NCBI GenBank assembly: GCA_964442985.1
Contig: CAYUBH010000001.1
Span: 7,311-44,979, forward strand
From: an uncultured Gammaproteobacteria bacterium
GTDB lineage: Bacteria; Patescibacteriota; Patescibacteriia; Magasanikbacterales; GWA2-37-8
Length of the DNA: 37,669 nt
Reading direction: 5' to 3'
The first letter of the stretch is position 1; each line of letters starts with the position of its first letter. The notes under the pieces were generated by a model. It worked only from the letters and a program-made list of their open reading frames with translations. It did no database searches and was not told the DNA's origin. The position numbers and the translations under genes were made by a program. This document shows positions 10,482 through 30,422 of the stretch, piece by piece.

Positions 10482-11855
10482 TTATCCTTTCAAAAAATTC
10501 AGCACATCACCCGGCGAGTCAATAACCTGCACAAAGGTGGTGTCATCTTGGCTGATTGTTTTAAAATCAGCATACAGCAAATGAATGTAGCTCAAGAGTG
10601 GTTGCCAAAAATCTTTACCGTACAAAATAATTGGCAAACGCTCCATCTTTTTGGTTTCAATAAGGGTCAGAAGCTCAAACAGCTGATGCATTGTCCCAAA
10701 CCCGCCTGGGAAAAAGACAAACGCTTCGCTTGGCGCCGTCAAAATAAGTTTACGCACAAACGGAAAGAAAAAATTGGTTGATTTAGTGAGCGCGTTATTG
10801 TGACGATCAATATTACGCACTTTCATACAAATACCAACACTTTCTCCGCCGTTATCAAAAGCTCCTTTGTTGGCTGCTTCCATAATCCCCGGACCACCAC
10901 CAGTAATCACGGTGTGTTTTTGTTTGGCGAGTAAGGCACCAATATCATAGGCTGCCTTGTAATACGGCGACCCCGGGAGCAAGCTCTTGGTGCCAAGCAC
11001 AGTCACATTGTGTGAGAGCGCCGACAAAAACTCAAAGCCGTCCACCAATTCTGCCATAATACGAAACACCCGCCAGTCGGTTGTCCCTTCTTGGCAAAGC
11101 GGATTCATCGGATCGTTATTGCAAGTGTTTGGTCTATCTGGCGCATTTTTAAGAAGTTGAAACGCTTCATCGGCCGTGTCCACAATATGCCAGCTGGCAA
11201 TATCCGCTTCGCTCAGCGAATTAACCTGTTTCAATGATTTATTTCGTAAAAAATCGACGAGTGGTTGCCAAAAATCGCGCCCCACCAAAATGACTGGGGA
11301 TTTATCCATAAACCCCATTTCCATGTAGTCGACAATTTCAAAAAACTCATCGAGCGTCCCAAAACCACCTGGGAAAAAAACAAACGCATTACCCGGCGAC
11401 GTGAGCATCAGCTTGCGGGTGAAGAAATAATAAAAAGCGATAGATTTATTAACGTACGGATTGATGCGTTGTTCAAACGGCAACTGAATGTTGAGCCCCA
11501 CACTTGGCCCGCCGGTTTCGTAAGCTCCCTTGTTGGCTGCCTCCATAATCCCCGGACCACCACCAGTGATAGTAGTAAAACCATTTTTACCAAGCAATCG
11601 CCCCAGCTCAACCGCAATCTGATAAAATTTGTTATTGGCTGGCAAACGAGCCGACCCCAAAATCACCACTTCTTTTGTAAGCTCGCCCAAAAATTGGTAG
11701 CCTTCGACGATCTCGGTGATGATACGAAAAATCCGCCAGCTATCACGATGATTGACCACTGCGCCGGCAGTATCTGTAAAATGCGACTCTGGAATTGACG
11801 CAGCCGAAGACTCATCCGCTACCGGAGCTGTTTTTTTTGAGCGGCGTGGAGGCAT
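10482..11855 (-). CDS. Tandem fusion of two LOG/TIGR00730-family (nucleotide phosphoribohydrolase) domains
   Basis: GGGPGIMEAANKGA occurs twice (aa 98-111 and 319-332). PGGFGTLDE (aa 162-170) contrasts with PGGFGTMHQ (aa 383-391). Confidence 0.8.
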   Translation of the reverse strand: MPPRRSKKTAPVADESSAASIPESHFTDTAGAVVNHRDSWRIFRIITEIVEGYQFLGELTKEVVILGSARLPANNKFYQIAVELGRLLGKNGFTTITGGGPGIMEAANKGAYETGGPSVGLNIQLPFEQRINPYVNKSIAFYYFFTRKLMLTSPGNAFVFFPGGFGTLDEFFEIVDYMEMGFMDKSPVILVGRDFWQPLVDFLRNKSLKQVNSLSEADIASWHIVDTADEAFQLLKNAPDRPNTCNNDPMNPLCQEGTTDWRVFRIMAELVDGFEFLSALSHNVTVLGTKSLLPGSPYYKAAYDIGALLAKQKHTVITGGGPGIMEAANKGAFDNGGESVGICMKVRNIDRHNNALTKSTNFFFPFVRKLILTAPSEAFVFFPGGFGTMHQLFELLTLIETKKMERLPIILYGKDFWQPLLSYIHLLYADFKTISQDDTTFVQVIDSPGDVLNFLKG

Positions 11856-11890: not shown

Positions 11891-13312
11891 TTACGACAGA
11901 GCGTGGCCCAAGCGAAGAATCGTGCTTTCGGCCAAACGAGCGCCAATAAGCTGAACACCGACTGGCAAACCAGCCGACGTTTCACCAGCAGGAATAGACA
12001 GGGCTGGCATACCAGCCACAGCTGCTGGCGACACCATCACGTCAGCAAGATAGAGCGCCATTGGGTCGTTGGCCTTCTCCCCCACCCCAAATGCTGGGAA
12101 TGGCGAGGTTGGCGTAATCAAGACATCAACTTTTTTAAACACTTCATCAAAATCACGACGAATCAGCGTGCGCACTTGTTGCGCTTTTTTGTAATACGCA
12201 TCGTAATAACCAGCCGACAGCGCATACGTACCGATCAAAATACGACGTTTTACTTCTTCAGGGAAACCAGTGGCACGAGAATCAGCATAGAGGTCATACA
12301 GTGTTTTGTCAGACGCCCGCACACCATAGCGCACGCCATCAAGCCGACCAAGATTGGAACTGTCTTCACTTGGGACAATAATATAGTACACCGCAATAGA
12401 ATATTTGGTGTGTGGCAAGCTAACTTCTTCTACTGTACAACCCAATTTTTTGAGTGCTTCAATTTTGGCTTCAGTTATTTTCAAAACTTCTGGATCAATC
12501 CCCGGAACATTAAAATATTCTTTCGGAACACCGACGCGCAAACCTTTGACCGATTTTGTTAATTCTTTGGTGTATGAAGGAACTGGTTCTGGGACAGTCG
12601 TTGCGTCGCGCGGATCAACACCAGCAATCGCTTCCATCACAATGGCCGTATCTTCGACTGTCTTGGTAATTGGGCCGACAGTATCCAAGGACGAGGCCAT
12701 CGGCATAATGCCATAGCGAGAATTGCGACCATAGCTTGGACGAAGCCCCACTACACCACAAAAACTTGCTGGCTGGCGAATCGAGCCACCAGTATCTTCG
12801 GCAATAGAAAAAATACATTGGTCATCGGCCACTGCTGCCCCGCTCCCACCCGATGATCCACCAGCCACTTTGCTCGTGTCATGTGGGTTGCGCACTGGGC
12901 CATACATGCTGTTTTCATTGCTGGCTCCATGCCCAAAAGCGTCACAGTTATTTTTACCAAGCAACACCCCGCCTTGTTCACGAATTTTATGAATCACTGT
13001 CGCTTCAAATGGCGGGACATAGTTATCTAAAATCTTCGCCGAACCAGTCGAGCGAACATCAGCAGTGTTAATAGCGTCTTTCACCGCAAATGGAATACCG
13101 GTGAGCGGGTGAGCTGTCCCAAAAGCAAATCGCTTGTCAGCTTCGCGAGCTTCGGCCAACGCCTGCTCCTCGGAGACGGTGATAAACGCATTAATTTCTT
13201 TGTTGCGTTCTTTGATGCGTGCCAAACACGCTTTGGTCAGATCAACTGAGGTAAATTTTTTTGCCCAAAGCCCCGCCTGTGCTTCCGCAAGAGTAAGTTC
13301 ATTAAGATTCAT
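11891..13312 (-). CDS. gatA: Asp/Glu-tRNA(Asn/Gln) amidotransferase subunit A
   Basis: Amidase signature GGSSGGSGAAVA..EDTGGSIRQPASFCGVVGLRPSYG. Lies immediately after gatC. Confidence 0.95.
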   Translation of the reverse strand: MNLNELTLAEAQAGLWAKKFTSVDLTKACLARIKERNKEINAFITVSEEQALAEAREADKRFAFGTAHPLTGIPFAVKDAINTADVRSTGSAKILDNYVPPFEATVIHKIREQGGVLLGKNNCDAFGHGASNENSMYGPVRNPHDTSKVAGGSSGGSGAAVADDQCIFSIAEDTGGSIRQPASFCGVVGLRPSYGRNSRYGIMPMASSLDTVGPITKTVEDTAIVMEAIAGVDPRDATTVPEPVPSYTKELTKSVKGLRVGVPKEYFNVPGIDPEVLKITEAKIEALKKLGCTVEEVSLPHTKYSIAVYYIIVPSEDSSNLGRLDGVRYGVRASDKTLYDLYADSRATGFPEEVKRRILIGTYALSAGYYDAYYKKAQQVRTLIRRDFDEVFKKVDVLITPTSPFPAFGVGEKANDPMALYLADVMVSPAAVAGMPALSIPAGETSAGLPVGVQLIGARLAESTILRLGHALS

Positions 13313-13317
13313 AGCAA

Positions 13318-13605
13318 TTATTCAAAAACACCAGGAACTGGTAATTCTTCAGCGGTGACTCGCGGCATAGTCGCCATGAGTTTGTCGCGAAGTGGGCTCA
13401 CAACCACTTCGTCGGAGCGAGTGACGTTGTGTAAGCCGGTCACCTGAGCTGTCGGCTCGACACCAGCTGTATCGACTTCATTTAAAATGGTCATGTAGTC
13501 TAAGACCGCCGAAATAGTTTCGGCATAGCGTTTTTCTTCGTCTGGGGTGAGCTTCAAACGTGATAGCTCAGCGATTTTTTGGACTTCTTGTAAGGATAAA
13601 GACAT
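13318..13605 (-). CDS. gatC: Asp/Glu-tRNA(Asn/Gln) amidotransferase subunit C
   Basis: 95 aa, IAELSRLKLTPDEEKRY...LDYMTILNEVDTAGVEPT. Lies 5 nt upstream of gatA. Confidence 0.9.
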   Translation of the reverse strand: MSLSLQEVQKIAELSRLKLTPDEEKRYAETISAVLDYMTILNEVDTAGVEPTAQVTGLHNVTRSDEVVVSPLRDKLMATMPRVTAEELPVPGVFE

Positions 13606-13614
13606 AGTGGCTGT

Positions 13615-13643
13615 AGTATACTAAAGCGCCTAAAGAATTGCAA
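13615..13643 (-). promoter_or_regulatory. gatC promoter positioned for a leaderless mRNA
   Basis: Minus strand: TTGCAA (13638-13643), 17 nt, TATACT (13615-13620), then only 9 nt to the ATG at 13605. Confidence 0.5.
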
Positions 13644-13655
13644 CAACAAAACCGG

Positions 13656-13683
13656 TTGACTTTTGCGGTAAAAAGGCTACTAT
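13656..13683 (+). promoter_or_regulatory. tsaE promoter (divergent from gatC)
   Basis: TTGACT (13656-13661), 16 nt, TACTAT (13678-13683). ATG at 13702. Confidence 0.45.
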
Positions 13684-13701
13684 AGAGAGCACACTTTTCT
13701 T

Positions 13702-14130
13702 ATGGAAATTATCTCAATTGGACCAGACACTACCAAACAAGCTGGAGCTGAGCTCGCCCGCAAAATAATCGGCGGAGCGATTATTTGCTTACACGGTGAT
13801 TTGGGCGCTGGCAAAACCACCTTTACCAAAGGCTTTGCCGAGGGCTTAGGGCTTCAACACGATATGACCAGCCCGACATTTACCCTGATGAATGTCTATC
13901 GCCTGCCACACACTGCCCCAGCTCGCGAATTGGTCCACATCGACACCTATCGTCTCGAGAGCGAAGCTGAGCTTGTCGGTATTGGTGTTGAGGATTATCT
14001 TGGTCAACCACACACTATCACCCTCATTGAGTGGCCAGAAAAAATCTCTTCCCTACTCCACAATAAAAAAGTGGTCAATGTTACCATTGACCACCTTGAA
14101 GAAACGACTCGAAAAATTACTGTTCAATAG
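13702..14130 (+). CDS. tsaE: tRNA t6A37 biosynthesis ATPase TsaE
   Basis: LHGDLGAGKTTFTKG P-loop, SPTFTLMNVY, HIDTYRL, 142 aa. Confidence 0.85.
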   Translation: MEIISIGPDTTKQAGAELARKIIGGAIICLHGDLGAGKTTFTKGFAEGLGLQHDMTSPTFTLMNVYRLPHTAPARELVHIDTYRLESEAELVGIGVEDYLGQPHTITLIEWPEKISSLLHNKKVVNVTIDHLEETTRKITVQ

Positions 14131-14563
14131 ATGGACACAGATCCATCGCTGCTTGAAGCTTCACATCACATTCTTCGTTGGCTTTGACACATTTTGGTGT
14201 CTCACTCCATGATGGACAACCGGCAGCAATTTTTTTACAAAACTTATTCGCTTCTTGAATAGCTTTGTTACACTTCTGAGTGAGGCTCGTCACCGCGCTG
14301 GTTGAGACAGCGACAATAGAACCAGCTGGAAGTGGTTTGGCTGGGACTGTCGAGGTAGTTACTTCTTCACTCACTTCAACTTTTTTTACCACTGGTTTAA
14401 CAGTTGGCTTGGTAGTGGTTTTAGCCACTACTTTTTTAGTTGGGGCAGCTTTGACAACAGTCGCTTGGGAAACCGGTAATTTTTCAACCTCCGCCAAAGA
14501 CATAGCTGGGAGGCCAAGAATGGCCACCGCCAAGGCTGTGATAAAGATAGCAATCTTTTGCAT
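14117..14563 (-). CDS. Secreted Lys/Thr/Val-rich protein with Cys-rich C-terminal domain (148 aa)
   Basis: Signal peptide MQKIAIFITALAVAILGLPAMSLA, a KPTVKPVVKK low-complexity region, and six Cys in the last 50 aa. Its 3' end overlaps the tsaE 3' end by 14 nt (convergent). Confidence 0.6.
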   Translation of the reverse strand: MQKIAIFITALAVAILGLPAMSLAEVEKLPVSQATVVKAAPTKKVVAKTTTKPTVKPVVKKVEVSEEVTTSTVPAKPLPAGSIVAVSTSAVTSLTQKCNKAIQEANKFCKKIAAGCPSWSETPKCVKANEECDVKLQAAMDLCPSIEQ

Positions 14564-14591
14564 AGATATAGGTCAGTTATTCAGAGGGTGT

Positions 14592-14620
14592 ACCCTACCA
14601 GAAAACCAGCTTTTTGTCAA
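14592..14620 (-). promoter_or_regulatory. Promoter of the 148-aa secreted protein gene; near-copy of the yidC P1 cassette
   Basis: Minus strand: TTGACA (14615-14620), 17-nt spacer AAAAGCTGGTTTTCTGG ending in TGG, then TAGGGT (14592-14597). Confidence 0.5.
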
Positions 14621-14650
14621 TAAAAAAGACCAGATAATAGCTAAAATAAG

Positions 14651-15895
14651 CTATTTTTTGGGCTTTTGAGGAGATCCACCGACGTACTGTCGCCCGCTGA
14701 GCTCGGGCGGGAGATACTCTTGCTCCACCGGGCCGTCAAAATCCGGGTTATACTTATACCCCTTCCCATAACCGATTTCTTTCATAAATCCAGTCGGCGC
14801 ATTACGCAAATGAAGCGGAACGCCGAGATGCGAGGTGGCTTTGGCATCACTCGCTGCCGCCTGGTAGCCGGTATACAGCAGATTAGACTTGGTAGACTTG
14901 GCGCAATACACCACCGCCTGAGCCAGATGAACCGCACATTCGGGCATACCAAGCTTGTGGCAGGCGTCGTAGGCGGTATTAGCCTGTACCATTGCCTCGC
15001 TGTTAGCCATCCCAATATCCTCACTCGCGAATCGAAGCACACGCCGAGCGACATAAAGCGGATCAGCCCCACCCTCGAGCATCCGGGCGAGCCAATACAA
15101 ACTTGCATTAGCATCCGACCCACGCATAGATTTGTGGAGAGCTGAGATAAGGTTATAAAACTCTTCACCGCGTTTATCGAAAATCAAGTGTGTGCGCTGG
15201 AGTGCTTCTTTAATTCCTTCAGAGGTAAGAACGATTGTTTCTTTATTGGATTGAGATTTAATTGCGAGCTCCAGGCCATTGAGCGCCGAACGAGCATCAC
15301 CACCAGACAATTCAGCTAACAGTTCGAGCACCTCGTCGGGCACGGTTATCTTCAAAGCGCCATAGCCATGCTCAGTATCACGAAGCGCTCGTTTCAAAAC
15401 AGTGGTGATGTCCGCTACTGTCAGATGCTTCAAAATAAACACCCGCGAACGACTGAGAAGCGCGCCGTTAATCTCAAACGAGGGATTTTCGGTGGTAGCA
15501 CCAATGAGTGTGAGTATCCCCTGCTCTACAAATGGCAGGAGCGCATCTTGTTGCGCTTTGTTCCAACGGTGAATTTCATCAATAAACAAAATAGTGCGCT
15601 CACCGTCTGCCCGATGTTTCTCGGCTTCGGCCACCACTTTGCGCAGTTCATCTTTGCCACTCGCCACCGCCGACATCACCACAAACCGAGACTTAGTTTG
15701 CTCAGCAATAATATGCGCCAAGGTAGTTTTGCCCACCCCCGGCGGACCCCAAAAAATAATCGATGAAAGCTGATCGGTGTCTACGAGCTGGCGGAGTAGT
15801 TTTCCCGGTGCCACACTATCTGTTTGACCGACAAAGTCGTCAAACGAGCGCGGACGAAGACGCTCGGCCAAAGGAATTGAAGAAATTTTAGACAT
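14651..15895 (-). CDS. rarA: Replication-associated recombination protein A (MgsA/RarA AAA+ ATPase)
   Basis: LAERLRPRSFDDFVGQ, GPPGVGKTTLA, LFIDEIHRWNKAQQD, and C-terminal MgsA helical domain (YDACHKLGMPE). Confidence 0.9.
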   Translation of the reverse strand: MSKISSIPLAERLRPRSFDDFVGQTDSVAPGKLLRQLVDTDQLSSIIFWGPPGVGKTTLAHIIAEQTKSRFVVMSAVASGKDELRKVVAEAEKHRADGERTILFIDEIHRWNKAQQDALLPFVEQGILTLIGATTENPSFEINGALLSRSRVFILKHLTVADITTVLKRALRDTEHGYGALKITVPDEVLELLAELSGGDARSALNGLELAIKSQSNKETIVLTSEGIKEALQRTHLIFDKRGEEFYNLISALHKSMRGSDANASLYWLARMLEGGADPLYVARRVLRFASEDIGMANSEAMVQANTAYDACHKLGMPECAVHLAQAVVYCAKSTKSNLLYTGYQAAASDAKATSHLGVPLHLRNAPTGFMKEIGYGKGYKYNPDFDGPVEQEYLPPELSGRQYVGGSPQKPKK

Positions 15896-16997
15896 ATCGT
15901 TCGAGTAGTGTCGCGAGCCACTCCTTGAAACGCATGAATAATGTACTTCGTTTAATCATCGCTTCATCCACCGACTTCGCGCTCGCCTTATAGGTATTAA
16001 ACAGAGCGTTAAGCTCAGCCACCATTTTGGTATCACTAAAATAAACACCACTTTCTTCGTTCATTCCATAACTCCGGGGGGTCATGTTGGCGCTCCCCAC
16101 CATTCCAGTAGAATCATCGATCGTCACCGCTTTACCATGATTCATTTTCGGCAGTAAATACAAATTAGCACCAGCTTTGAGGGTCAGCCGGAAATAGGCT
16201 CGTGCAATCAACTCCATCAATTTGGTATCGGTACGAAGTGGCATGAAAATATTAATTTTCACCCCACGTTTTTTGGCAGCGGTCACTGCTTTGAGAAATG
16301 CCTTATCCGGCGCGTAATACGGCGTCAAAAAATTAACACTTTCTTTGGCCATCGCGAGCGCCTTAATATACAATTTGCGCGTAATTTTATCTTGGCGAAG
16401 TTTTGGCGAGTGCGCAATAAACTTCAACTTGTTGGTAAAATCTTTCCAGCTTTCACGATCGTTTGGTTTGAGCAAATGCCACACAGCGCTTTTTTTGCCA
16501 CCCGAAGAAATATAGCTTTTGGCAAACCCGCGCAGTAGCGGTCGAGGCACTAAGCCTTGAATTTTGAGGTAAATATCATCCCACTCATTATAACTTGCCT
16601 TAATATTCACCCCACCCAAAAAGACCGTGGTTTCATCCACCACCAACACTTTGCGATGATTGCGAAACCACAAACGAGAAAACCAGCGCCACAAACGAAT
16701 TTCTGGATAAATACGGTTATAAAAATGTAAATCCACTCCAGCGTCAATCAACCGACGAACAGCAGTTTGCGACATTTGAAATCCACCAATCGCATCAATC
16801 ACCATTTTCACTTCCACCCCAGCTTTAGCTTTGGCGCACAATAATTCCACAAAGGTGTCCCCTACTTTGTCATCGACGAAAATAAATACTTCCCAATAAA
16901 TAGATTTTTGGGCAGTAGACAAAGCCTGGTACATAGCATCCCAGGCTTCAGAGGTCGTAGCGTAAAATCGGTAGGTATATTTTTCTGCTAATTCCAT
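15888..16997 (-). CDS. cls: Phospholipase D-family protein with two HKD motifs (ClsB-like cardiolipin synthase; no TM segment)
   Basis: HRKVLVVDETTVFLGGVNI and HGKAVTIDDSTGMVGSANM. Overlaps rarA by 8 nt and the upstream 666-aa ORF by 10 nt. Confidence 0.75.
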   Translation of the reverse strand: MELAEKYTYRFYATTSEAWDAMYQALSTAQKSIYWEVFIFVDDKVGDTFVELLCAKAKAGVEVKMVIDAIGGFQMSQTAVRRLIDAGVDLHFYNRIYPEIRLWRWFSRLWFRNHRKVLVVDETTVFLGGVNIKASYNEWDDIYLKIQGLVPRPLLRGFAKSYISSGGKKSAVWHLLKPNDRESWKDFTNKLKFIAHSPKLRQDKITRKLYIKALAMAKESVNFLTPYYAPDKAFLKAVTAAKKRGVKINIFMPLRTDTKLMELIARAYFRLTLKAGANLYLLPKMNHGKAVTIDDSTGMVGSANMTPRSYGMNEESGVYFSDTKMVAELNALFNTYKASAKSVDEAMIKRSTLFMRFKEWLATLLERYV

Positions 16998-18988
16998 AAA
17001 TATACCACTAAAAATAACATAGCCAGCGCGCTATAAATAAGCATTTTTTTCGAGCCGGCATCAACAGCGACTGTTCCTTGATCCACCGCCAGCGGATACC
17101 GTTTTTCTTTGGTCAGGAGCATAAACACACCCTGCTCTTCGGACACCACAAACCCCGAGCGAATTTCACCAAACAACCGGGTAACCGATTCATCCACTTC
17201 GCCCACTCCTGGGACAGCGTGATGCCGTCCATACGATGATAGCGCTTCTTCAATCTTTTTGGCAACACCTACCGCTGTTTCCGCCTCTTTGAGCGCCAAG
17301 GAATGCTGTTTGTAGAGCTCTTCTTCGGTGTAGGTGGCAGATTTCGCCCGCTCTACCTCACTCGCCACCACCCGAGCCCCAGTGGCCGAGCGAAGACCAA
17401 ACAAGAAGTCGGAAGTAACCACCTCAGACGGCAAAGCTAAAGTAATTTCGTCGCCACCAATCAAAAGTGGGATAGACGACCGCTGAAGTGCCTCTTCACA
17501 AAACAAACGAACATTTTCACGAATAGTTCGTAGTCGCGAGGTCATTTCATCACCAGCCGAGAGTGATTCAAAAAACAACGTAGTATCTTTTTGATCTTCG
17601 GGCGCTTTGGCAATTTTTTGAAACGACTGCTCATAGCTCAAAAGCAAATCCACCCCAACATCGAGCACGTCAATACAGATATAGGTACACTGCGGTGTAG
17701 CCAGCGCCTCACGATGAAACACTGCTGGCGACGTACACGAAGCATCTTTTTGATCACGACGCAAAATTTCACCGGCCATTTTGAGAGTTTTTTTGTCAGC
17801 TGGAAAAAAAGTGTTGCGTAAATCATCAACAGTATGCATTTCCTGATCAAGCAAACGACTCACATACACTCCCGGAGCGCCTTCTTCTACCGGATGCCCA
17901 GAAATTTCTCCATGAGTGAAAGGTTTGACGACATCCAAAATATTAATTCGCTGACGATAGGTATCAAGCAAAGCGATTATTTTCTTGTCATGCTCGCCTT
18001 TTGGCTGAAACGTTCCTTTGCGAAGCAGGCGAAGCAAGTCACGGTTGAGTTGGTACGTTTTAGTCACTTGGTCAAAGAAGAAAATAACATGCGGACCCAA
18101 GTGTTTATCCACCACTACTTCACCGAGCGAACGAATTTCTTCGCGCAATTGTTCTGTTTCATCCACCACTGCCAAAATATCCTGCGACTGGTAGGCGCGT
18201 CCATACTCTTGCCCGCGGTTTTTTTGGGCCACTTTGGCCGCTTGCAAACTTTGAAGCACCGTTAATTCGATATGCGAATAATCTCGCACACCGTAATACG
18301 GGTCGCCCACCTCACTCATCCCAAACGACAGTTTGTAGCCACTCTCTCGCGTACGCTCTTCAAATTTTTTGAGAAATTCCGTGGATTGTCCTTTTTTGGC
18401 GAGTTCAGATCGTCGAGCGCGAATCTTTTCGGCCACAAACGTATCCATTGCCGCTCGGACGGTTTCACAAATCTGGGTCAAAATCTCTGGTGTTGCTTCG
18501 TTGGCTTTAAAAATACCCGTTTTATAATCTTGGCGGAGCGGTTCAAACCCATACGACAACATCACCTCACGAAGCACGGTCTTTTGGTGCTCAATAATGT
18601 CGTCGGTGCCTTGCGGACCAAAAATATCATCGTTGAGGTGTTTAATAGAAAACTCGGCCCCTGGCACCAAAAAAGTCACCAGTTGGTCACCAGTTTCAAG
18701 ATGAGCGAACAGCGTATTCCAACCACGCCCATCAATCATCGCCGCTGCTTTGAGGCGCTGCTCATCAGACACTGTTTCGCCGGCTTCAAAGATATCTATC
18801 AAATTACCCACTTCCAAATGGCGTTTGAGGCGTTGCACGGTGAGATCAAGCTCAAAATCTTTTTCAGGGGTATGCGAAACAGGCGTCTCAAAGAACGCCT
18901 GGGGAATTTTTTCCATTTCAGCCATTGGTCGGTGAAATTTTTCGGACATATAACACCCATAGTATACCATTTTTGGCGTGGGCATCAA
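16988..18988 (-). CDS. Large uncharacterised protein with GGDEF-like palm signature (GGDE intact), a degenerate second half-motif and a C-terminal TM anchor
   Basis: aa 436-585: ICIDVLDVGVDLL...SAGDEMTSRL...LLIGGDEITLALP...LKEAETAVGVAKK. aa 111-134: AEFSIKHLNDDIFGPQGTDDIIEH. Tail is MLIYSALAMLFLVVYLW. Start is uncertain: TTG 18988, ATG 18985/18970, or ATG 18949 if the internal promoter (TTGATG 18983-18988, TGGTATACT 18961-18969) is real. Confidence 0.7.
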   Translation of the reverse strand: MMPTPKMVYYGCYMSEKFHRPMAEMEKIPQAFFETPVSHTPEKDFELDLTVQRLKRHLEVGNLIDIFEAGETVSDEQRLKAAAMIDGRGWNTLFAHLETGDQLVTFLVPGAEFSIKHLNDDIFGPQGTDDIIEHQKTVLREVMLSYGFEPLRQDYKTGIFKANEATPEILTQICETVRAAMDTFVAEKIRARRSELAKKGQSTEFLKKFEERTRESGYKLSFGMSEVGDPYYGVRDYSHIELTVLQSLQAAKVAQKNRGQEYGRAYQSQDILAVVDETEQLREEIRSLGEVVVDKHLGPHVIFFFDQVTKTYQLNRDLLRLLRKGTFQPKGEHDKKIIALLDTYRQRINILDVVKPFTHGEISGHPVEEGAPGVYVSRLLDQEMHTVDDLRNTFFPADKKTLKMAGEILRRDQKDASCTSPAVFHREALATPQCTYICIDVLDVGVDLLLSYEQSFQKIAKAPEDQKDTTLFFESLSAGDEMTSRLRTIRENVRLFCEEALQRSSIPLLIGGDEITLALPSEVVTSDFLFGLRSATGARVVASEVERAKSATYTEEELYKQHSLALKEAETAVGVAKKIEEALSSYGRHHAVPGVGEVDESVTRLFGEIRSGFVVSEEQGVFMLLTKEKRYPLAVDQGTVAVDAGSKKMLIYSALAMLFLVVYLWN

Positions 18989-18998
18989 AGTACTTTAT

Positions 18999-21900
18999 TT
19001 ACTCAGAGGCCAAAAGTTGAAGAAGTAATTTTTGCGTACGCAACGCAACAACACCAGTTGCACGCTTGAGACCAAGCGGAGTTAATAATTCTTTCTTGTA
19101 TTTCTCTTGAAACCGTTTCACAGCAGCCTCCGTAGCTATACCAAATAAATTAGTTTCATTCCCAATCGACCCAGGACCATTTTTTGCAATAATAAACCCG
19201 AGACTGTTAAGAGCACGCTGAAGAGCCAGAACATCTAAACCGCGCAAACCTCGTTTAAGCGAGCGAGTAAACGCCAAAAATATCTTAGGGGTGGTCGTTG
19301 CCACAGACACAACAGTTGTCGGAGTGGTCGTCGCTTGCTCAACAACAGTATCCAACGTCGAAGATACTGCGCTCGGCAGCGTCGACGATGCTATTACTAA
19401 AGGTGCGGTCGAGGTCGTATCAAAATTAGGAGAAGATACTAGCGCAGGCGAGGACCCGCCATATACCGGTGTAGGCTGGGTAGTAGCAGCATCATTGTCA
19501 GAAATAGTGACAGTCACCGTAGACGAAGCACTATACGGGACAAGAGCGCCAGCAAAGTTAGAGATGGAAAAAACGGCTGTTTCTGAGCTTTCACTGGTCG
19601 AATCGTCAGTCAAAGCAAACTGCACCGAAGTAGTAGTCGAACCAGCAGCAATAGTCGCTGTTGCCGCAGTGTAAATAAAATCACTACCTGACGAAGCAGT
19701 ACCACCGGTAACACTCACATAGACATCAACCGGGTCGGTGGAGGTGGCGTTAATACCAACAACCAACGTGGTTGTTCCGCCAGCCTCAGAAACAGTTTGA
19801 TCAGCTGTAAGAAACGACAGAAGACTCGCATCAAACTCTACCAAACCATCTGCTAAACGATTAGAGATGGTAGAACAAAAAGCACCACATGAGGCCACCA
19901 AACGAAACTTATTAAAACCATACACACCATTCGGGGCGGACGCTCGAGCTGGTGGTGCCCAATTTTGCAACGTACCAGTCGAAATATTAATTGCCACAAA
20001 CCGATCTCGAGTGGAGCTGTTGACCATAGTAAAGCTACCCGAGGCAAAAAGTGTATTTGTTGTGATAAAAAAAGTTTCAACAGTGCTATTAGCATTCGGA
20101 TTCCAGTGTGTTGCCACACCATTAATATCGATTGCTGCCAAACGATTACGTGAAGTACTCGTATTAACAGTTGTAAAGGAGCCTGAGATAAATAAACTTG
20201 ACGTTGTCATCGTTGGATCAAACTGCATCCATTCAATAGTACTACCAATGTTCGGATCAAAGTGGGTCAAAACACCATTACGATCGAAGGCCGCCATACG
20301 GTTACGTGTTTGACCAGCTGCTTTAGTAAAGCTCCCACCAATAAAAATACTACTTGTAGCGCCTGTCTTATCAAATGCTATAAAGCTAACTGTACTACTC
20401 GCCCCCATCGGGTTCCAGTCACCAATCAAAACACCATTAGTATCAACAGCGGCCAAACGATTACGAGTTGAGCTATTAATATCGACAAAATCACCGCCAA
20501 TAAACAATGAGCTCGTCGCCCCTGTTGGATCACCAGCAATAACACTCACTGCCGCATTTGACCCAGGATTCCAGGCGAGCACATTGCCACTTCTGTCAAG
20601 TGCTGCCAAATTATTACGTGGCGTACCATTTACCGCCTGAAAAGTACCACCAATATACACCGCGTCAGTATTTTTATCGTAATAAACAGCGTTGACATCA
20701 CCACCACCAAGAGTATTAGAAAGCGAGCTTGATACCCGAGGAAAACCGAAGGTCATATTTAAACCCCCGTCTGGATTCATACTATACAAATCGTATGCTC
20801 GATACGCGTTTTCATAAAGATCATAGGCAGCAACAAATATTTGACCACCGGAAATTGCAAAATCATTAACCTGAACAACCACGGGGATCTGAAAACTCGT
20901 AAAATCACCGTTATAATCAACTCCTGCCATATACAAACGATCAATCGCTCCAGTCGCATTTGTCGAAGTTACCTTATAAAAATTACCACTCATATAGACC
21001 GTCGACGACATCACCATAATGTCGCTCGCACTTGAATTAAACATAGGTCGCCACGAGGTGACCAGATTACCACTGCGATCAATCGCCACCGCCCGACTCA
21101 TCGTTGTTGAGGGAACAGAGTTGGTAGAACTCACAATAGTAAACGACCCGCCAATAAAAAGAGACGAGGTATTGCCTTGAGCATCAAACGCCATTTCACT
21201 CACGGTGTTATCAAAGCTCGGCGACCAATCACCAATTAACGAACCGTTCCGATCGTAAGCAGCCAAACGATTACGGGTATAATTTGTCGTTGACGATGCA
21301 GTGGTGGTGGTGAAGGCACCACCAACAAAAATACTAGAGGTAACCGACGTTGGGTCAAAGGCAATAGCACTTACCGTATTATTAACATCAGGATTCCAGC
21401 TAGTCAGGGCTCCATTTGGATCCCAAGCAGCGACTCGACGACGAGTTATATTACCAGTTGTTGTTGTAAATGCTCCACCAACAAAAATTGTCGTTGTAGC
21501 CCCAGTCGGGTCAAGCGTGATAACAGAAACACTATTATTAACATCAGGATTCCAAGCAAGAAGAGCTCCGGTGGTTGCGTTAAGCGCCGCCAAACGATTC
21601 CGCGGTGTACCATTCACCATTACAAATGACCCACCAATATACAATGTGGATGTGCGCAGAGCCATAGCGTTAATAGTTGTCGTAATAACAGTGGTAAACG
21701 ACGAATCAACTGAGCCGTCTGACAAGATGTGAAAAAGAAGGGTCGTCGCCGGAACTTCATTGATAGTTGAGGTTGACCCACCGGCAACATACCACCCGCC
21801 AGCGTTATCAGAAATTACCACCGAAGCACTCAGAGGAATACGTGGATAATTCGCATACGCAGGAGCTCCAGTTGTGAGATTAAAAACTCTACCACCAGTC

Positions 21901-22130
21901 GAACCAAGCGTACTTGTCCCTGCTGTCTCAAACGAATTACCAGACCACCAACTTGTTCCATCCGGAGCAAAGGTGGCGTTAGCTACCGCACCATTATTAG
22001 TAGCCGTTTCACCAATTCGGATAACATCCCGAATTGCTAGCGCTGAACCAGAAAAAAACCAAGAAAAGACAAAAAAGAGGAGAAAGGATGCAAAAAAAGG
22101 CATTACACCGGAGAAAAAACGACGAAACAT
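18999..22130 (-). CDS. Giant secreted cell-wall-associated protein (about 1043 aa): beta-propeller repeats (DUF5122/delta-60-like), Calx-beta-like domain, Thr-rich linker, PG-binding domain
   Basis: Signal peptide MFRRFFSGVMPFFASFLLFFVFSWFFSGSALA from ATG 22128-22130; the ORF-track start at 22151 is GTG. Repeats of NRLAAxDxxGxLxxWNPxxNxxVxxIAFDPTGxxSSIFIGGxFT. Confidence 0.85.
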   Translation of the reverse strand: MFRRFFSGVMPFFASFLLFFVFSWFFSGSALAIRDVIRIGETATNNGAVANATFAPDGTSWWSGNSFETAGTSTLGSTGGRVFNLTTGAPAYANYPRIPLSASVVISDNAGGWYVAGGSTSTINEVPATTLLFHILSDGSVDSSFTTVITTTINAMALRTSTLYIGGSFVMVNGTPRNRLAALNATTGALLAWNPDVNNSVSVITLDPTGATTTIFVGGAFTTTTGNITRRRVAAWDPNGALTSWNPDVNNTVSAIAFDPTSVTSSIFVGGAFTTTTASSTTNYTRNRLAAYDRNGSLIGDWSPSFDNTVSEMAFDAQGNTSSLFIGGSFTIVSSTNSVPSTTMSRAVAIDRSGNLVTSWRPMFNSSASDIMVMSSTVYMSGNFYKVTSTNATGAIDRLYMAGVDYNGDFTSFQIPVVVQVNDFAISGGQIFVAAYDLYENAYRAYDLYSMNPDGGLNMTFGFPRVSSSLSNTLGGGDVNAVYYDKNTDAVYIGGTFQAVNGTPRNNLAALDRSGNVLAWNPGSNAAVSVIAGDPTGATSSLFIGGDFVDINSSTRNRLAAVDTNGVLIGDWNPMGASSTVSFIAFDKTGATSSIFIGGSFTKAAGQTRNRMAAFDRNGVLTHFDPNIGSTIEWMQFDPTMTTSSLFISGSFTTVNTSTSRNRLAAIDINGVATHWNPNANSTVETFFITTNTLFASGSFTMVNSSTRDRFVAINISTGTLQNWAPPARASAPNGVYGFNKFRLVASCGAFCSTISNRLADGLVEFDASLLSFLTADQTVSEAGGTTTLVVGINATSTDPVDVYVSVTGGTASSGSDFIYTAATATIAAGSTTTSVQFALTDDSTSESSETAVFSISNFAGALVPYSASSTVTVTISDNDAATTQPTPVYGGSSPALVSSPNFDTTSTAPLVIASSTLPSAVSSTLDTVVEQATTTPTTVVSVATTTPKIFLAFTRSLKRGLRGLDVLALQRALNSLGFIIAKNGPGSIGNETNLFGIATEAAVKRFQEKYKKELLTPLGLKRATGVVALRTQKLLLQLLASE
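19002..19259 (-). other. PG_binding_1-like peptidoglycan-binding domain (C-terminus of the second giant protein)
   Basis: GLRGLDVLALQRALNSLGFIIAKNGPGSIGNETNLFGIATEAAVKRFQEKYKKELLTPLGL, parallel to 5167-5427. Confidence 0.7.
19497..19829 (-). other. Calx-beta-like domain
   Basis: FLTADQTVSEAGGTTTLVVGINATSTDPVDVYVSVTGGTASSGSDFIYTAATATIAAGSTTTSVQFALTDDSTSESSETAVFSISN fits the pattern (E..G...v.V.R.G......V.y.T.dGTA..G.DY.......F..Ge....i.i.i.dD...E..E.F). Confidence 0.55.
19947..21734 (-). repeat. Coding tandem repeat: about 12 beta-propeller blades of about 50 aa
   Basis: Examples: RNRLAALNATTGALLAWNPDVNNSVSVITLDPTGATTTIFVGGAFTT; RRRVAAWDPNGALTSWNPDVNNTVSAIAFDPTSVTSSIFVGGAFTT; RNRLAAVDTNGVLIGDWNPMGASSTVSFIAFDKTGATSSIFIGGSFT. 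Confidence 0.6.
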
Positions 22131-22196
22131 AACAAAAAAATTACAATACACAGAAATTATAGTATACCATAAAAATGGTATAAAAGAAGTAAACTG

Positions 22197-23090: not shown

Positions 23091-23609
23091 TCAAGGTCGG
23101 TTGTCGTCCGCTCGGTAGACAAAAATCCCCTGATCTTTAGCATGAAGCTTGGCTCCCGGGATAGCAAAGGTATACGACACCAACAGTGACCCCGGCTTCA
23201 TCGCCTGAAAAAGCTGTGGCGCTAAGCGCTCCATCGGCCCCGGAAACAGAAAGGTAAAAATAACGTCCGCCTCCCCAACCTTGGCTGAATAAATAGACGC
23301 TCGACGCGCTGTCACTCGCCCGCTTAAACCTCGCACCTTGGCAACCAATCGCGTCCACCACACCAAAAAAGGATTGAGCTCATACCCCTCGGCCACCGCC
23401 CCACGACGCGCTGCCAAAAAAAGTAGTCTCCCCGCCCCCGAGCCAAGGTCAATCACTCGCGACCCTCTGCCCACTCCCCCGAGCTCCATCATTTTCATCG
23501 CTTGGCGCCGGTGCGTGGGCAAAAACGGCACCCCGATGCAGACAGAAATAACCGAAACCGTCATGAGGATAATCACGACGGCCGAAAAAAGATACAAAAA
23601 AGTAAACAT
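23091..23609 (-). CDS. Class I SAM-dependent methyltransferase with N-terminal TM helix
   Basis: Motif I VIDLGSGAGRLLFLAARRG, 172 aa, and a hydrophobic N-terminus FLYLFSAVVIILMTVSVISVCIG. Confidence 0.65.
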   Translation of the reverse strand: MFTFLYLFSAVVIILMTVSVISVCIGVPFLPTHRRQAMKMMELGGVGRGSRVIDLGSGAGRLLFLAARRGAVAEGYELNPFLVWWTRLVAKVRGLSGRVTARRASIYSAKVGEADVIFTFLFPGPMERLAPQLFQAMKPGSLLVSYTFAIPGAKLHAKDQGIFVYRADDNRP

Positions 23610-23612
23610 ACC

Positions 23613-24911
23613 TTAACGAAGCCAAGTGGCTTCTTGGCGCACCAGTAATTCCCCTGCTCTAAGTGGCTCGGCCATAATTTCTTTGACAATTTTTTCCATT
23701 CGCGACCCTTGCGAACCTTTGATAAGCACCACGTCACCAGTTTGAATTTTTTGTTGCATATATTTCCCCGCCTCGACACTGTCATCGAAACAAACCACTC
23801 GTTCAGCTGGTAATCCCGCTTCAATCGCCGCTTCAGCAGTAATTTTAGACGCAGCGCCAACAGTAATTAAATTATGAATACCAAGCTCCGCTACCAAATG
23901 CCCAATTTCTCGGTGCGCCGACTCTGTCTCGCCACCAAGCTCGAGCATATCTCCAAGCACCGCGTAATATTCCGCCCCAGCTTCTTTGAGTGCCACACCA
24001 GACAAGGTGGTGAGCGCAGATTTAGCCGCTGCTGGCGAAGAATTATACGTGTCATCAATAAGCAGTGTCTTTTTAATCCCACTCAGCGCCCGCATATGTC
24101 CCGGCAACGGCTTAAGTGAACGAAGCGCTTCCACCGCTTGCAGTAAATTAATCCCAAACGTCTGCCCCACAGCGACAGCGGCGAGTGTCGCTGGTATCAC
24201 ACTACTGCTAATAATGTCTGGTAAAAAAACCGGGACACTACTCCCCTGAAAATTAATTTTAAAATTAAAACCAATCGGCCGCGAGCCGTCGTCGCTCGTC
24301 AGCACCTGCAAATCTGTCGCGCGGAGATCGGCTCCTTCTTTGAAGCCGTAAGTGATCACCTGGGCTTTGGTTTTTTTGACTTGCTCCATCACATACGAAT
24401 TGTCGTAGTTGAGAATAGCAAAACCACTTGGTTTCAAATGCGAAATAATCACCTGCTTTTCAAGAGCAATGTTTTGAATTGTTTTAAAAAATTCCGTGTG
24501 CGCGTGAGAGATAAACGTGAGCACCCCCACCTGACACGGCGCTAATTTGGTGAGGTACGCAATATCCCCCGGCTTGTCAGCACCCATTTCCAACACCAAC
24601 GTGGCGGGATAGCGAACATCGCGCAAGATAAGGAGGCGCAAACCTTTCAAAAAAACAGCCAGCCAGCCGAGGAGGGACGAGCCCGGGCTTTTATCGACAC
24701 CAATAATAGTGAGCGGAACACCAATTTCATTATTATAATTCTTTTTGCTTTCACGAACATTAAAATGTTTGCCGAGCACCAAGGCCACCGCCTCTTTGGT
24801 AGAGGTTTTACCGACCGAGCCAGTGATACCCACTACCTGCGGGCGGTATTTCCGCATAATCCGACTAGCCAACCAGTATAAAACTTTTTGTAGAATAGTG
24901 TTCATAGGCAA
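23613..24911 (-). CDS. murF: UDP-N-acetylmuramoyl-tripeptide--D-alanyl-D-alanine ligase
   Basis: Mur ligase P-loop GITGSVGKTSTKE, LEMGADKPGDI, and C-terminal DDTYNSSPAAAKSAL. Directly follows the PBP gene. Confidence 0.85.
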   Translation of the reverse strand: MPMNTILQKVLYWLASRIMRKYRPQVVGITGSVGKTSTKEAVALVLGKHFNVRESKKNYNNEIGVPLTIIGVDKSPGSSLLGWLAVFLKGLRLLILRDVRYPATLVLEMGADKPGDIAYLTKLAPCQVGVLTFISHAHTEFFKTIQNIALEKQVIISHLKPSGFAILNYDNSYVMEQVKKTKAQVITYGFKEGADLRATDLQVLTSDDGSRPIGFNFKINFQGSSVPVFLPDIISSSVIPATLAAVAVGQTFGINLLQAVEALRSLKPLPGHMRALSGIKKTLLIDDTYNSSPAAAKSALTTLSGVALKEAGAEYYAVLGDMLELGGETESAHREIGHLVAELGIHNLITVGAASKITAEAAIEAGLPAERVVCFDDSVEAGKYMQQKIQTGDVVLIKGSQGSRMEKIVKEIMAEPLRAGELLVRQEATWLR

Positions 24912-26642
24912 TTATTTTTTATCTCCAGCAATACCGTAATACTGGAGCGCAAATTCCATAATATCTCGAAACACTGGAATCGTCGTATTTTCGGCCCATT
25001 TTAATTCCGGCTCTTCAAATTTTACAATCATCACAATTTCTGGGTCATTGGCCGGAGCAAAACCAGCAAAGGTGTGGTTGGTACGTGTCTCACTATATTT
25101 CCCCGCTTCGGCAATCTGCGCTGTCCCGGTTTTTCCAGCAATATAGTACTGCTTTATTTGCGCCGAACGATAATGGTTCTCCACCACCGAGGTGAGCATG
25201 CCACTCAAAAGCTTGGCTGCTCGCTCACTAATCACCCGCTCGGTGATTACTCCTGTTTTTTCTTTTTGACCATTCGGATAACGCACTTCTTCCACCACAT
25301 AGGGTGTTGGAAGTAATCCGTTATTAGCAATTGCCGAATATGCTGCCGCGAGTTGAAGCACCGTCACAGTAAGCCCTTGGCCGAATGAGCCATTGGCTCC
25401 AAAAATCTCCCCTTTACGCGACAAAGACGAAATATCTCCAGCCACTTCAGTATTGAGAGCCACGCCAGTTTTTTCACCAAAACCAAAATGCTTAATATAT
25501 TCTTGAAACCGCGAACTACCAATGCGCCCTTCGAGCCACACATGAGTGGTGTTAATAGAATTCTCCAATGCTTCGGTCATCGTGTGGCGACCGTAGCATT
25601 TTTGAAGAGCGTTACGCACAGTGAAGCCGTCTATAATAAGTTTACACGGGTCAGTATAGGGTGTCGAGGGTGAAACAAGGCCAAGATCAAGAGCCGACGC
25701 CATGGTAAATGCTTTAAAAACCGAACCAGGCTCATATGGTGTAAAAACCGCAGTATTATTAAAAACAGCAATATCATCGACTTTAGAAAAAGCATTTGGA
25801 TCAAAATCTGGCACGCTACACATCGCCAAAACTGCCCCCGTATGCGGGTTCATCATGACAAGCGACCCAGATTTGGCTTTATACTCGATCATCCCCTGGC
25901 GCAGACGCTCGCAGGCCTTAAATTGAAGAGTGCGATCAATCGTCAGAAGCAAATCAGCTCCATTTTGCGCTTCCACCGCTGTTCGGTCACCAAGCGTAAT
26001 CCAACCACCGCCAACCCCCCGCTCAGCCATAAGAAATCCACCCTGGCCAGCTAGTTTTTTCTCCCAATAACCTTCGACGCCGTATTTTCCCACCAATCGC
26101 CCCTCGTCATTCGGCGACGCAAAGCCGATCACCGGCGCAGCTAGCACTTCTTCGGGATAAAACCGATACGTTTGAGGCGAAATATATACTCCGCGCACAT
26201 TCCACGATTCAATCATTTTAGCCGTTTCTTCGGGGACTTTTTTGGCAACCACTGCATAACTCCCCCGCTTAGCTATTTTTTCACTAAGCGATTTCTGATC
26301 GCCCGATGACAGGCCAAGGACTCTGACCAGAGCGTCGGTGGTGGAAGCGGTCACCTCTTCGGGAATATCCTTAGGAACAGCGTAGATAAGATAGAAATCT
26401 TTATTAATCGCCACCGGATATTCTTGTTTGGAACGACTGTCCTGCACAAAAATCTGCCCGCGCACGGGGTGTAATTTTTTGTATATTTCATGCGTATTGA
26501 GGGCGAAGAGCGAATAGTAATCGTGGCGCATTACTTGAAGATAAAACAACCGAGCCACCACCCAGGTAGCAAGGAGAAACACCAAAAGAGCGACAAACCG
26601 CAGGCGTCGCTCATCAATAAGTTGTTTCCGAAAAGTGGTCAT
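24912..26642 (-). CDS. ftsI: Class B penicillin-binding protein (FtsI/PBP2-type transpeptidase)
   Basis: N-terminal TM segment, then SxxK (GSVFKAF), SxN (NSINT) and KTG (GKTGTAQ). The ATG at 26640-26642 is preceded by GGGGGAG; the ORF-track start at 26666 is GTG inside the -10 box. Confidence 0.8.
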   Translation of the reverse strand: MTTFRKQLIDERRLRFVALLVFLLATWVVARLFYLQVMRHDYYSLFALNTHEIYKKLHPVRGQIFVQDSRSKQEYPVAINKDFYLIYAVPKDIPEEVTASTTDALVRVLGLSSGDQKSLSEKIAKRGSYAVVAKKVPEETAKMIESWNVRGVYISPQTYRFYPEEVLAAPVIGFASPNDEGRLVGKYGVEGYWEKKLAGQGGFLMAERGVGGGWITLGDRTAVEAQNGADLLLTIDRTLQFKACERLRQGMIEYKAKSGSLVMMNPHTGAVLAMCSVPDFDPNAFSKVDDIAVFNNTAVFTPYEPGSVFKAFTMASALDLGLVSPSTPYTDPCKLIIDGFTVRNALQKCYGRHTMTEALENSINTTHVWLEGRIGSSRFQEYIKHFGFGEKTGVALNTEVAGDISSLSRKGEIFGANGSFGQGLTVTVLQLAAAYSAIANNGLLPTPYVVEEVRYPNGQKEKTGVITERVISERAAKLLSGMLTSVVENHYRSAQIKQYYIAGKTGTAQIAEAGKYSETRTNHTFAGFAPANDPEIVMIVKFEEPELKWAENTTIPVFRDIMEFALQYYGIAGDKK

Positions 26643-26674
26643 ATTCTCCCCCATAGTATACACCAAAAAGACAG

Positions 26675-30362: not shown

Positions 30363-30422
30363 ACACACTAGAGCTATATATAAAGTATAGCTAGTGTAGC
30401 ATACCACCTTAAAAAAACAATC

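Follow-up and report, generated by a model that had tools for sequence, protein, structure and literature searches.

A predicted single-chain two-palm enzyme of Magasanikbacteria belongs to an undescribed family within the GGDEF/Cas10 palm superfamily, with distant relatives linked to extracellular contractile injection systems

In the window (the whole stretch of 37,669 nucleotides of contig CAYUBH010000001.1 that was analysed here), a minus-strand open reading frame (ORF) ending at position 16988 encodes a protein that an original prediction, made from the letters alone, had described as nucleotide-cyclase-like and coupled to a phospholipase D (PLD) gene. We found this protein to belong to a family, covered by no Pfam or NCBIfam model, in which two palm-type units and the linker between them are conserved family-wide as a single module of ~540 residues. 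Our preferred reading, to which we give a slightly better than even chance, is that it is a single-chain, pseudo-heterodimeric palm-domain nucleotidyltransferase or cyclase that uses nucleoside triphosphates (NTPs), and a stand-alone member of this undescribed family. The evidence that carries this reading consists of the predicted fold, the positions of the motifs in it and their conservation. Residues are numbered throughout according to the listed ORF of 666 codons.

An AlphaFold2 model built from a 28-sequence alignment (mean predicted local distance difference test score (pLDDT) 82, predicted template modelling score 0.80) contains two units of the palm-type beta-alpha-alpha-beta-beta-alpha-beta order, in agreement with the palm-like fold that had been proposed. 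In palm 1, as assigned by DSSP, a strand (102-107) is followed by helices (115-145), a hairpin (149-153/157-161), a helix (167-198) and a strand (221-226), and in palm 2 a strand (433-440) is followed by three helices (444-501), a hairpin (508-510/514-520), a helix (526-536), a strand (539-546) and a long helix (555-589). Palms of GGDEF proteins, Cas10 and polymerases hold their metal ligands at the end of strand 1 and on the hairpin, which are the positions of D440 and of the GGDE motif in palm 2. When the whole model was compared with the Protein Data Bank (PDB) by Foldseek, the Cmr2/Cas10 chain 3w2w_A ranked first (E 7e-5, probability 0.99), with other Cmr2/Cas10 chains, including a type III-D Cas10, at E 7e-5 to 1e-3 (also 4w8y, 9l7d, 8s9v). 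Human soluble adenylyl cyclase formed the second group (4cly, E 6e-4, template modelling (TM) score 0.2-0.27), followed by GGDEF domains (6eib, TM 0.55 on the target; LapD; WspR) and then by GTP cyclohydrolase III (2qv6, E 1e-2, probability 0.95). Two palm or cyclase domains within one chain are the common feature of Cas10, soluble adenylyl cyclase and GTP cyclohydrolase III. A model of palm 2 alone (residues 395-600, pLDDT 80) had the mCpol of Panoptes OptS as its top match (9pd0, E 1e-2, probability 0.91), then GGDEF and class III cyclases, with a Thg1-like protein, reverse transcriptases, a Y-family polymerase, AbiP2 and DRT9 lower in the list.

Searches at the sequence level delimited the family. 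Pfam and NCBIfam scans of the window protein gave nothing credible (a weak match to DUF6285, E 0.0099, lay below the cutoff and was disregarded), and all PDB chains, searched with the protein sequence and with the 28-sequence profile, gave nothing relevant. No PAS, GAF or REC domain was found in the window protein, as had been stated before, and no input domain was identified in it. A word-indexed search returned 27 homologues, every named one of which is from Candidatus Magasanikbacteria, and at least three proteins when an alignment of the distant modules served as query. An exhaustive hidden Markov model search of 1.84 billion cluster representatives yielded 261 relatives (counted at 50% identity) at E<=1e-3, 117 of them at E<=1e-30. 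No relatives were found among IMG/VR viral contigs, GenBank phages and PLSDB plasmids, which leaves an origin from mobile elements unsupported.

In the 28-sequence alignment D440, V441, D443, G445, G479, D480, G511-G512-D513-E514, H562, E570, K577 and E580 are invariant, as are K116, N119 and D120 in the N-terminal half. Of these family representatives, clustered at 50% identity, 137 full-length ones were aligned to the family profile: in palm 2, D440 is kept in 136 of these, G445 in 134, the GGDE residues in 132-135, K577 in 132, E580 in 130, D480 in 125 and D443 in 116, while in palm 1 N119 is kept in 136, K116 in 135 and D120 in 118, with Y or F at position 155 in 128 and K156 in 117. The same conserved residues are kept in the 34 most distant members, giant proteins included. 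Conservation of GGDE among orthologues, on which the original prediction had been made to depend, thus amounts to 96-99% of the representatives, likewise for D440 and K116/N119. The ~270 residues between the motifs, which had been left unassigned, hold near-invariant R323, K324, Y344, N349, D352, S420 and F424 (R323 in 135, D352 in 136 and F424 in 134 of the 137); among these R323 and K324 are conserved basic residues of the linker, and a role of this inter-palm region in phosphate or substrate binding is predicted.

Direct translation located AEFSIKHLNDDIFGPQGTDDIIEH at residues 111-134, and YICIDVLDVGVDLL ... SAGDEMT ... IPLLIGGDEITLALP ... LALKEAETAVGVAKK inside residues 436-585, where the series DVLDVG / AGD / GGDE / KEAE..AKK is found, with GGDE at residues 511-514, all as originally described. 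Profiles made from the 137 representatives were compared by hhalign with a small GGDEF alignment (an approximated Pfam consensus, PleD and PA0575). Palm 2 aligned at P 1.9e-4 (probability 47%), pairing AGD with GHxxGD, GGDEITLALP with GGDEFAILLP and H..A.K.AE.G...AK with RADKALYQAK; palm 1 aligned at P 0.003 (probability 10%), pairing IKxLNDxxfGpQxtDxiI with FKrINDtyGHavGDevL and QDYKT with GGDEF. Both scores are modest, yet the two registers match the fold prediction. Palm 2 has no FKxxND and reads DVLDVGVDLL there instead, the KxLND being found in palm 1, 395 residues upstream; the GGDEF motif set is thus divided, with the base-binding KxxND in palm 1 and the metal and phosphate residues (D, GD, GGDE and ..AK) in palm 2. 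Since the palm-1 hairpin carries QDYKT and the end of its strand 1 is G, A or D across the family, with no conserved acid, palm 1 has lost its metal ligands. Between palm 1 and palm 2 hhalign found no significant similarity (probability 0.4%), so that an internal duplication is not demonstrable by sequence; such dissimilarity of the two palms is usual in Cas10. The earlier description of one intact and one degraded palm in a Cas10-like chain therefore stands at the level of fold and motifs, but the protein falls outside the GGDEF, Cas10, mCpol and class III cyclase families.

The GGDE hairpin, the Asp at the end of strand 1 and the GD and AK motifs in GGDEF register, together with the GGDEF domains among the Foldseek matches, would also fit a standard GGDEF diguanylate cyclase of very divergent sequence, dimerising via palm 2 and producing cyclic di-GMP. 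We regard this as very improbable, given that PF00990 matched neither the window protein nor any of 39 members scanned (28 from the Candidate Phyla Radiation (CPR) and 11 distant) at E<=10, that the base-binding motif FKxxND is in palm 1 and not in palm 2, that both halves are conserved together with the linker as one module, that the top full-length structural matches are single-chain two-palm enzymes, and that there is no I-site, RSSI (503-506) occupying the place of RxxD as had been noted before.

In the pseudo-heterodimeric enzyme that we favour, palm 2 would supply the two-metal catalytic centre, formed by D440 and by D513/E514 of the GGDE hairpin, as well as phosphate contacts through D480 and K577, while palm 1, devoid of metal ligands, would have retained the K-x-x-N-D motif for nucleotide binding. 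In Cas10 the active site is situated at the Palm1/Palm2 interface, with the GGDD loop coming from Palm2 and a second ATP held by Palm1 residues (PMC11734703), and by analogy the two palms may face each other and form one asymmetric active site between them. An NTP-Mg2+ would be bound by the metals of palm 2, and its alpha-phosphate would be attacked by the 3'-OH of another nucleotide that palm 1 holds, giving a linear or cyclic di- or oligonucleotide as the presumed product; intramolecular cyclisation, as in soluble adenylyl cyclase, seems less likely. Whether GGDEF and Cas10 enzymes recognise guanine or adenine depends on an Asn or a Ser, respectively, at the base-recognition position (PMC12657218), and in analogy to this the invariant palm-1 Asn hints at a guanine-type contact. 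The hydrophobic tail may hold the enzyme at the membrane in this clade.

A number of observations weigh against this reading. The global TM-scores of the whole model to the two-palm proteins are low (0.17-0.20), indicating that the relative placement of the domains differs. The Foldseek search with palm 2 alone gave no match below E 1e-3 and hence cannot decide between GGDEF, Cas10 and class III; the helical insertion of ~35 residues that separates D440 from A478-G479-D480 probably depresses its scores. GGDEF, cyclase and Cas10 models, among them the cyclase homology domain PF00211, had no match in the 39 members even at E<=10, scattered noise being all that was returned. Near the gene no receptor or effector for a nucleotide product was found, the window offering a housekeeping context. 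Moreover, palm folds are common to polymerases, Thg1 and reverse transcriptases too, and the protein might carry out another palm chemistry, either as a template-independent polymerase, as a Thg1-like nucleotidyltransferase acting on nucleic acid or protein, or as a GTP cyclohydrolase III-like hydrolase. The match to the tandem-palm GTP cyclohydrolase III points in this direction, as do the Thg1-like protein, Y-family polymerase, AbiP2 and DRT9 in the palm-2 list; GGDEF, Cas10 and Thg1 palms share their origin (PMC2904730), and toxin-type relatives, described below, need not make a signal. We nevertheless consider these chemistries quite unlikely: such matches are weak and ranked under those to Cas10, soluble adenylyl cyclase, GGDEF and mCpol, the register of GD, GGDE and AK is specific to the GGDEF/Cas10 lineage, and no nucleic-acid-binding domain was detected in Pfam scans of the protein and the 39 members.

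The original prediction had gone one step further and proposed that the palm protein makes a second messenger, with the translationally coupled downstream PLD as the output enzyme. The overlaps are as it stated, i.e. 10 nt between the palm-gene stop TAG (16988-16990) and the PLD start ATG (16995-16997), and 8 nt between the PLD end (15888) and the RarA start (15895). All five clade-A genomes seen moreover share the order PALM-PLD, their palm proteins being 42-46% identical, and a hydrophobic tail and a lipid-type PLD occur in the same clade. The PLD protein consists of two PLDc_2 domains with both HKD motifs, is nearest to cardiolipin synthases yet falls below their cutoffs, and its 369 residues are filled by these domains; Pfam and NCBIfam scans revealed no extra domain able to sense a nucleotide, and no room is left for one. 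Synteny argues against the coupling. The PLD lies beside the palm gene in 2 of 17 species-level loci, so the expected conservation of this neighbour was not found; PALM-PLD-RarA-x-TsaE is confined to the five closest genomes (the window, L013, L003/L014, L005 and L007), which alone have the hydrophobic tail. In ten of the 17 species-level GTDB loci an FkbM-type methyltransferase (MT21), DUF6938 and a 107-aa protein lie upstream of PALM and there is no PLD, and three loci have a large secreted protein, PALM, a QueH-like gene and TsaE at the same chromosomal place as in the window, minus PLD and RarA. Conversely, the PLD has more than 230 close relatives across Patescibacteria, and PLD-RarA-x-TsaE-GatC-GatA is intact without an upstream palm gene in all three other Patescibacteria genomes inspected for it (L047, L048 and L049), of which L047 also retains the penicillin-binding protein, Mur ligase and run of small ORFs seen at 23091-26666 of the window.

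The block at 11891-16997 of the window (PLD-RarA-small ORF-TsaE on the opposite strand-GatC-GatA), whose genes often overlap or abut across distant Patescibacteria, is therefore a housekeeping synteny block and not an operon of related function. Because the PLD overlaps the unrelated RarA gene too, the overlaps reflect compact gene packing, and because the adjoining block occurs without a palm gene, this gene together with that of a 1050-aa secreted beta-propeller protein upstream (18999-22151) represents a variable insertion. In the distant relatives of the palm protein the associations are with DUF4157 and a ~190-aa partner, and in no case with a PLD. Together these data largely refute the PLD as output enzyme, an idea that we now consider extremely improbable and have dropped.

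Upstream of the palm gene, the FkbM-type methyltransferase-DUF6938 arrangement marks the loci of the largest CPR clade (L001, L009, L011, L016-L019, L024, L025, L028 and L029). The DUF6938 protein (443 aa) is 78-86% identical between genomes of this clade, and 80-86% between those whose palm proteins are ~30% identical, and since it is so much better conserved than the palm protein, its adjacency is probably inherited synteny. The 107-aa protein, all-helical and present in most clade-B loci, is 38-62% identical and changes as fast as the palm protein, of which it could be a true partner; no Pfam family covers it, and the window contains no homologue of it.

Outside the CPR the module occurs in another setting. 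Among the weaker third of the family are giant proteins of Myxococcota and soil metagenomes, 1.8-4.1 thousand residues long, which carry the two-palm module close to their C-terminus. An N-terminal eCIS_core (DUF4157), named after extracellular contractile injection systems (eCIS), is the sole Pfam domain in P0119 (Vitiosangium sp., WP_108074819.1), P0120, P0132 and P0139 (a Deltaproteobacteria metagenome-assembled genome (MAG)), and the module is also fused to, or adjoins, an eCIS_core gene in L030, L031, L032, L035, L036, L038 and L040. In L032 a baseplate-J-like protein (9gtp_1K, 8.7e-26), a double AAA+ ATPase, the module gene, the small partner ORF and an eCIS_core protein follow each other, which places the module at the payload end of an eCIS cluster. 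In the published architecture of eCIS-associated toxins, DUF4157 at the N-terminus is followed by a long linker and, C-terminally, by the toxin (PMC8213781), which the relatives match, and the DUF4157 proteins of AlgoCIS are cargo within the tube lumen (PMC8894135). A GGDEF, cyclase or palm toxin is mentioned neither in the eCIS toxin survey PMC8213781 nor in a machine-learning survey of 2024.

In 13 of 17 distant loci a conserved ~190-aa ORF comes directly after the module, in several with a 4-nt overlap. It carries the motifs LxRYFVG, WREE, RPYCP, GTW and W.HR, belongs to no Pfam family, lacks homologues in the window and does not occur in any of the CPR loci; with a layout typical of toxin-immunity pairs, it looks like an immunity or partner protein. 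In P0149 (Omnitrophota MAG, MFH1459322.1, 1697 aa) a cNMP-binding domain (PF00027, E 2.5e-8, residues 963-1043) stands directly before the module (1036-1579), a fusion that is the single, circumstantial link to cyclic nucleotides. P0162 has a match to a DOT1-like methyltransferase after the module.

These relatives raise the question of role. While sharing the enzymology that we favour, the window protein might be an offensive effector of an episymbiotic CPR bacterium, directed against host or competitor cells, and not a component of endogenous signalling. The fusion to or adjacency with DUF4157/eCIS_core in Myxococcota and metagenome proteins, the eCIS cluster of L032, the published toxin architecture and the immunity-like ORF are consistent with this, as is the variable insertion formed by the palm gene and the large secreted protein. 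However, the CPR members have no DUF4157, signal peptide or immunity-like partner, eCIS_core being found in neither the window protein nor the CPR loci and confined to the distant relatives; the window holds no eCIS genes; viral, phage and plasmid collections hold no relatives; and the wide vertical spread of the family in Magasanikbacteria and Uhrbacteria, where more than 100 representatives remain at 50% identity, is in keeping with a resident function. We therefore regard an offensive role of the window protein as unlikely. As the relatives outside the CPR are payload-type toxin domains of eCIS, a harmful or signalling nucleotide product is favoured as the more economical guess. In its widest form, our tentative proposal, which taken as a whole we hold to be somewhat unlikely, is that the family consists of CRISPR-independent, Cas10-like two-palm nucleotide synthases that make a new toxic or signalling (cyclic) oligonucleotide, loaded into eCIS as a toxin that has its own ~190-aa immunity or partner protein in myxobacteria and other soil bacteria, and employed as a resident enzyme, membrane-anchored in some lineages, in the CPR bacteria Magasanikbacteria and Uhrbacteria.

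As to the gene itself, the homologues P0001-P0005 begin at MSE.. in the 28-sequence alignment, aligning with M14 (MSEKF), so that the true start is probably the ATG of M14 at 18949. The listed TTG start coincides with the -35-like hexamer of a promoter-like site, which stops 11 nt before this ATG; with the site so near, the mRNA is likely near-leaderless and starts a few bases 5' of the ATG. The most hydrophobic 19-residue segment (mean Kyte-Doolittle 1.6) lies at the extreme C-terminus, which is the sole strongly hydrophobic stretch. The C-terminal anchor that had been predicted is thus present here, but it is confined to the closest clade (P0001-P0005), the rest of the family being without it. 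The coordinates of all features are listed in Table 1.

Table 1. Positions of the palm gene, its domains and motifs and selected neighbours (window coordinates unless a locus is given)
Feature	Position	Strand	Basis or remark
Listed ORF	16988..18988	minus	TTG start, 666 aa
Probable real coding sequence	16988..18949	minus	ATG = M14, 653 aa; homologue starts
Sigma-70-like promoter match TTGATG-N16-TATACT with TG extension	18961..18988	minus	Consensus match alone
N-terminal segment, residues 14-45, probably disordered	18854..18949	minus	pLDDT <50 for residues 1-45; variable, poorly aligned in family
Palm 1, degenerate, residues ~100-265	18194..18691	minus	DSSP of AlphaFold2 model; hhalign against GGDEF
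K116-H-L-N119-D120 in palm 1, counterpart of GGDEF 'FKxIND' base-binding motif	18629..18643	minus	Conservation; aligned to FKrIND
QDYKT at palm-1 hairpin turn, in GGDEF position; Y155 and K156 conserved	18518..18532	minus	Model, hhalign, conservation
Inter-palm region, residues ~266-430, four-stranded sheet and helices	17699..18193	minus	Model, conservation
Palm 2, intact, residues ~431-590	17219..17698	minus	Models, Foldseek, hhalign against GGDEF
D440-V-L-D443-V-G445; D440 ends strand 1, predicted first metal ligand	17654..17671	minus	Conservation
A478-G479-D480, counterpart of GGDEF 'GHxxGD'	17549..17557	minus	Conservation; aligned to GD
G511-G512-D513-E514 on beta2-beta3 hairpin, predicted catalytic loop	17447..17458	minus	Translation, model, conservation, alignment to GGDEF
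K577...E580, long helix after palm 2; K577 aligns with Lys of GGDEF 'ALYxAK'	17249..17260	minus	Conservation, alignment
C-terminal small beta domain (~600-653) and hydrophobic tail (646-666)	16991..17191	minus	Model and alignment; tail in closest clade alone
PLD neighbour, two-HKD, ClsB-like phosphatidyltransferase, 369 aa, no extra domain	15888..16997	minus	Pfam/NCBIfam
~190-aa ORF family	L032-L041, L044, L046, L030; e.g. L035:11926-12504, L041:4635-5243		Motif and position

Other features of the window were recorded alongside. Two minus-strand ORFs, 5164-8778 (1204 aa) and the above-mentioned 18999-22151, encode giant predicted secreted proteins with beta-propeller/Kelch-like repeats and Calx-beta, and their C-terminal PG_binding_1 regions are 54% identical to each other over ~80 aa. 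In L020, L021 and L023, too, the palm gene comes after the gene of a large secreted protein, which shows no detectable homology to those of the window. At 10482-11855 (minus) a 457-aa protein combines in tandem a LOG/'lysine decarboxylase'-like and an SLOG cluster-4 domain, both nucleotide-processing folds; it sits in the conserved backbone and is present in L005 too. For the minus-strand ORFs 956-2128 (390 aa), 2112-3515 (467 aa) and 28668-30407 (579 aa), Pfam gave no match at E<=1e-5. The CPR-specific palm gene is found in several GTDB records (third-party annotation (TPA) assemblies) named 'uncultured Gammaproteobacteria bacterium' (L013, L015, L019, L022, L024, L028 and L029). As these carry a CPR-specific gene, and the palm protein of L013 is 91% identical to that of the window in an identical gene order, the name Gammaproteobacteria seems to be mistaken there.

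Signalling and immunity in bacteria depend centrally on palm-domain signal synthases (GGDEF, Cas10, mCpol), and to our knowledge every newly characterised palm branch so far has brought a new nucleotide or a new logic. The family described here places a Cas10-like asymmetry outside CRISPR, in a large family missing from domain databases, and does so in two very different settings, one being that of a resident, conserved protein in ultra-small CPR bacteria, the other that of a payload-type domain in eCIS/DUF4157 giants with an immunity-like partner. If active, it would constitute a new enzyme class among toxins that are injected and, in CPR bacteria, one of the rare candidates for nucleotide signalling, and, if our widest proposal is true, the first palm/GGDEF-type nucleotide-synthesising effector delivered between cells. 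The synteny analysis, for its part, removed a tempting inference of an operon with PLD as output.

Compared with known systems, the full-length model of the window protein has its best Foldseek match in Cas10 (Csm1/Cmr2), which has two RRM-like palms per chain, the first degenerate yet nucleotide-binding and the second with an acidic GG(D/E)(D/E) hairpin. Two palms in one chain with a GGDD-type loop in the second are likewise found here, at the fold level only and with low global TM-scores (0.17-0.19 for Cas10). The protein differs from Cas10 in having GGDE instead of GGDD, no HD domain, no detectable sequence similarity, no nearby cas genes or CRISPR array, and unlike inter-palm and C-terminal domains; cas-type and HD domains were not found in the palm protein, in 20 neighbouring window ORFs or in the related loci inspected. 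With GGDEF domains (PF00990; PleD, WspR) it shares the topology, the hairpin GGDE and strand-1-end D440 in their expected places, and GD, GG[DE]E and ..AK of palm 2 and KxxND of palm 1 in register; it differs from these in splitting the motif set over two domains, in its lack of a Pfam match and I-site, in the helical insertion between the strand-1 Asp and GD, and in having I, L or V, not F, as fifth motif residue.

Like the mCpol of Panoptes OptS, a palm enzyme outside CRISPR complexes that makes cyclic dinucleotides (PMC12657218) and the top match of the palm-2 model, the window protein stands apart from CRISPR. However, mCpol is an oligomerising single palm of ~120 aa in which the GGDEF motif is largely missing, paired with a membrane effector in a defence operon, whereas the window protein has 653 aa and two palms and lies in a housekeeping context with no conserved effector neighbour. 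Soluble adenylyl cyclase and the other pseudo-heterodimeric class III cyclases combine two related catalytic domains, with one active and one degenerate site, in one chain, as the window protein may do, but the latter has no PF00211 match and its motif register follows GGDEF/Cas10. Finally, the eCIS-associated DUF4157 toxins share their architecture or adjacency with distant family members, in contrast to the window protein and all CPR members, which are without DUF4157, eCIS genes and the downstream partner. The protein is thus best described as belonging to a new family within the GGDEF/Cas10 palm superfamily.

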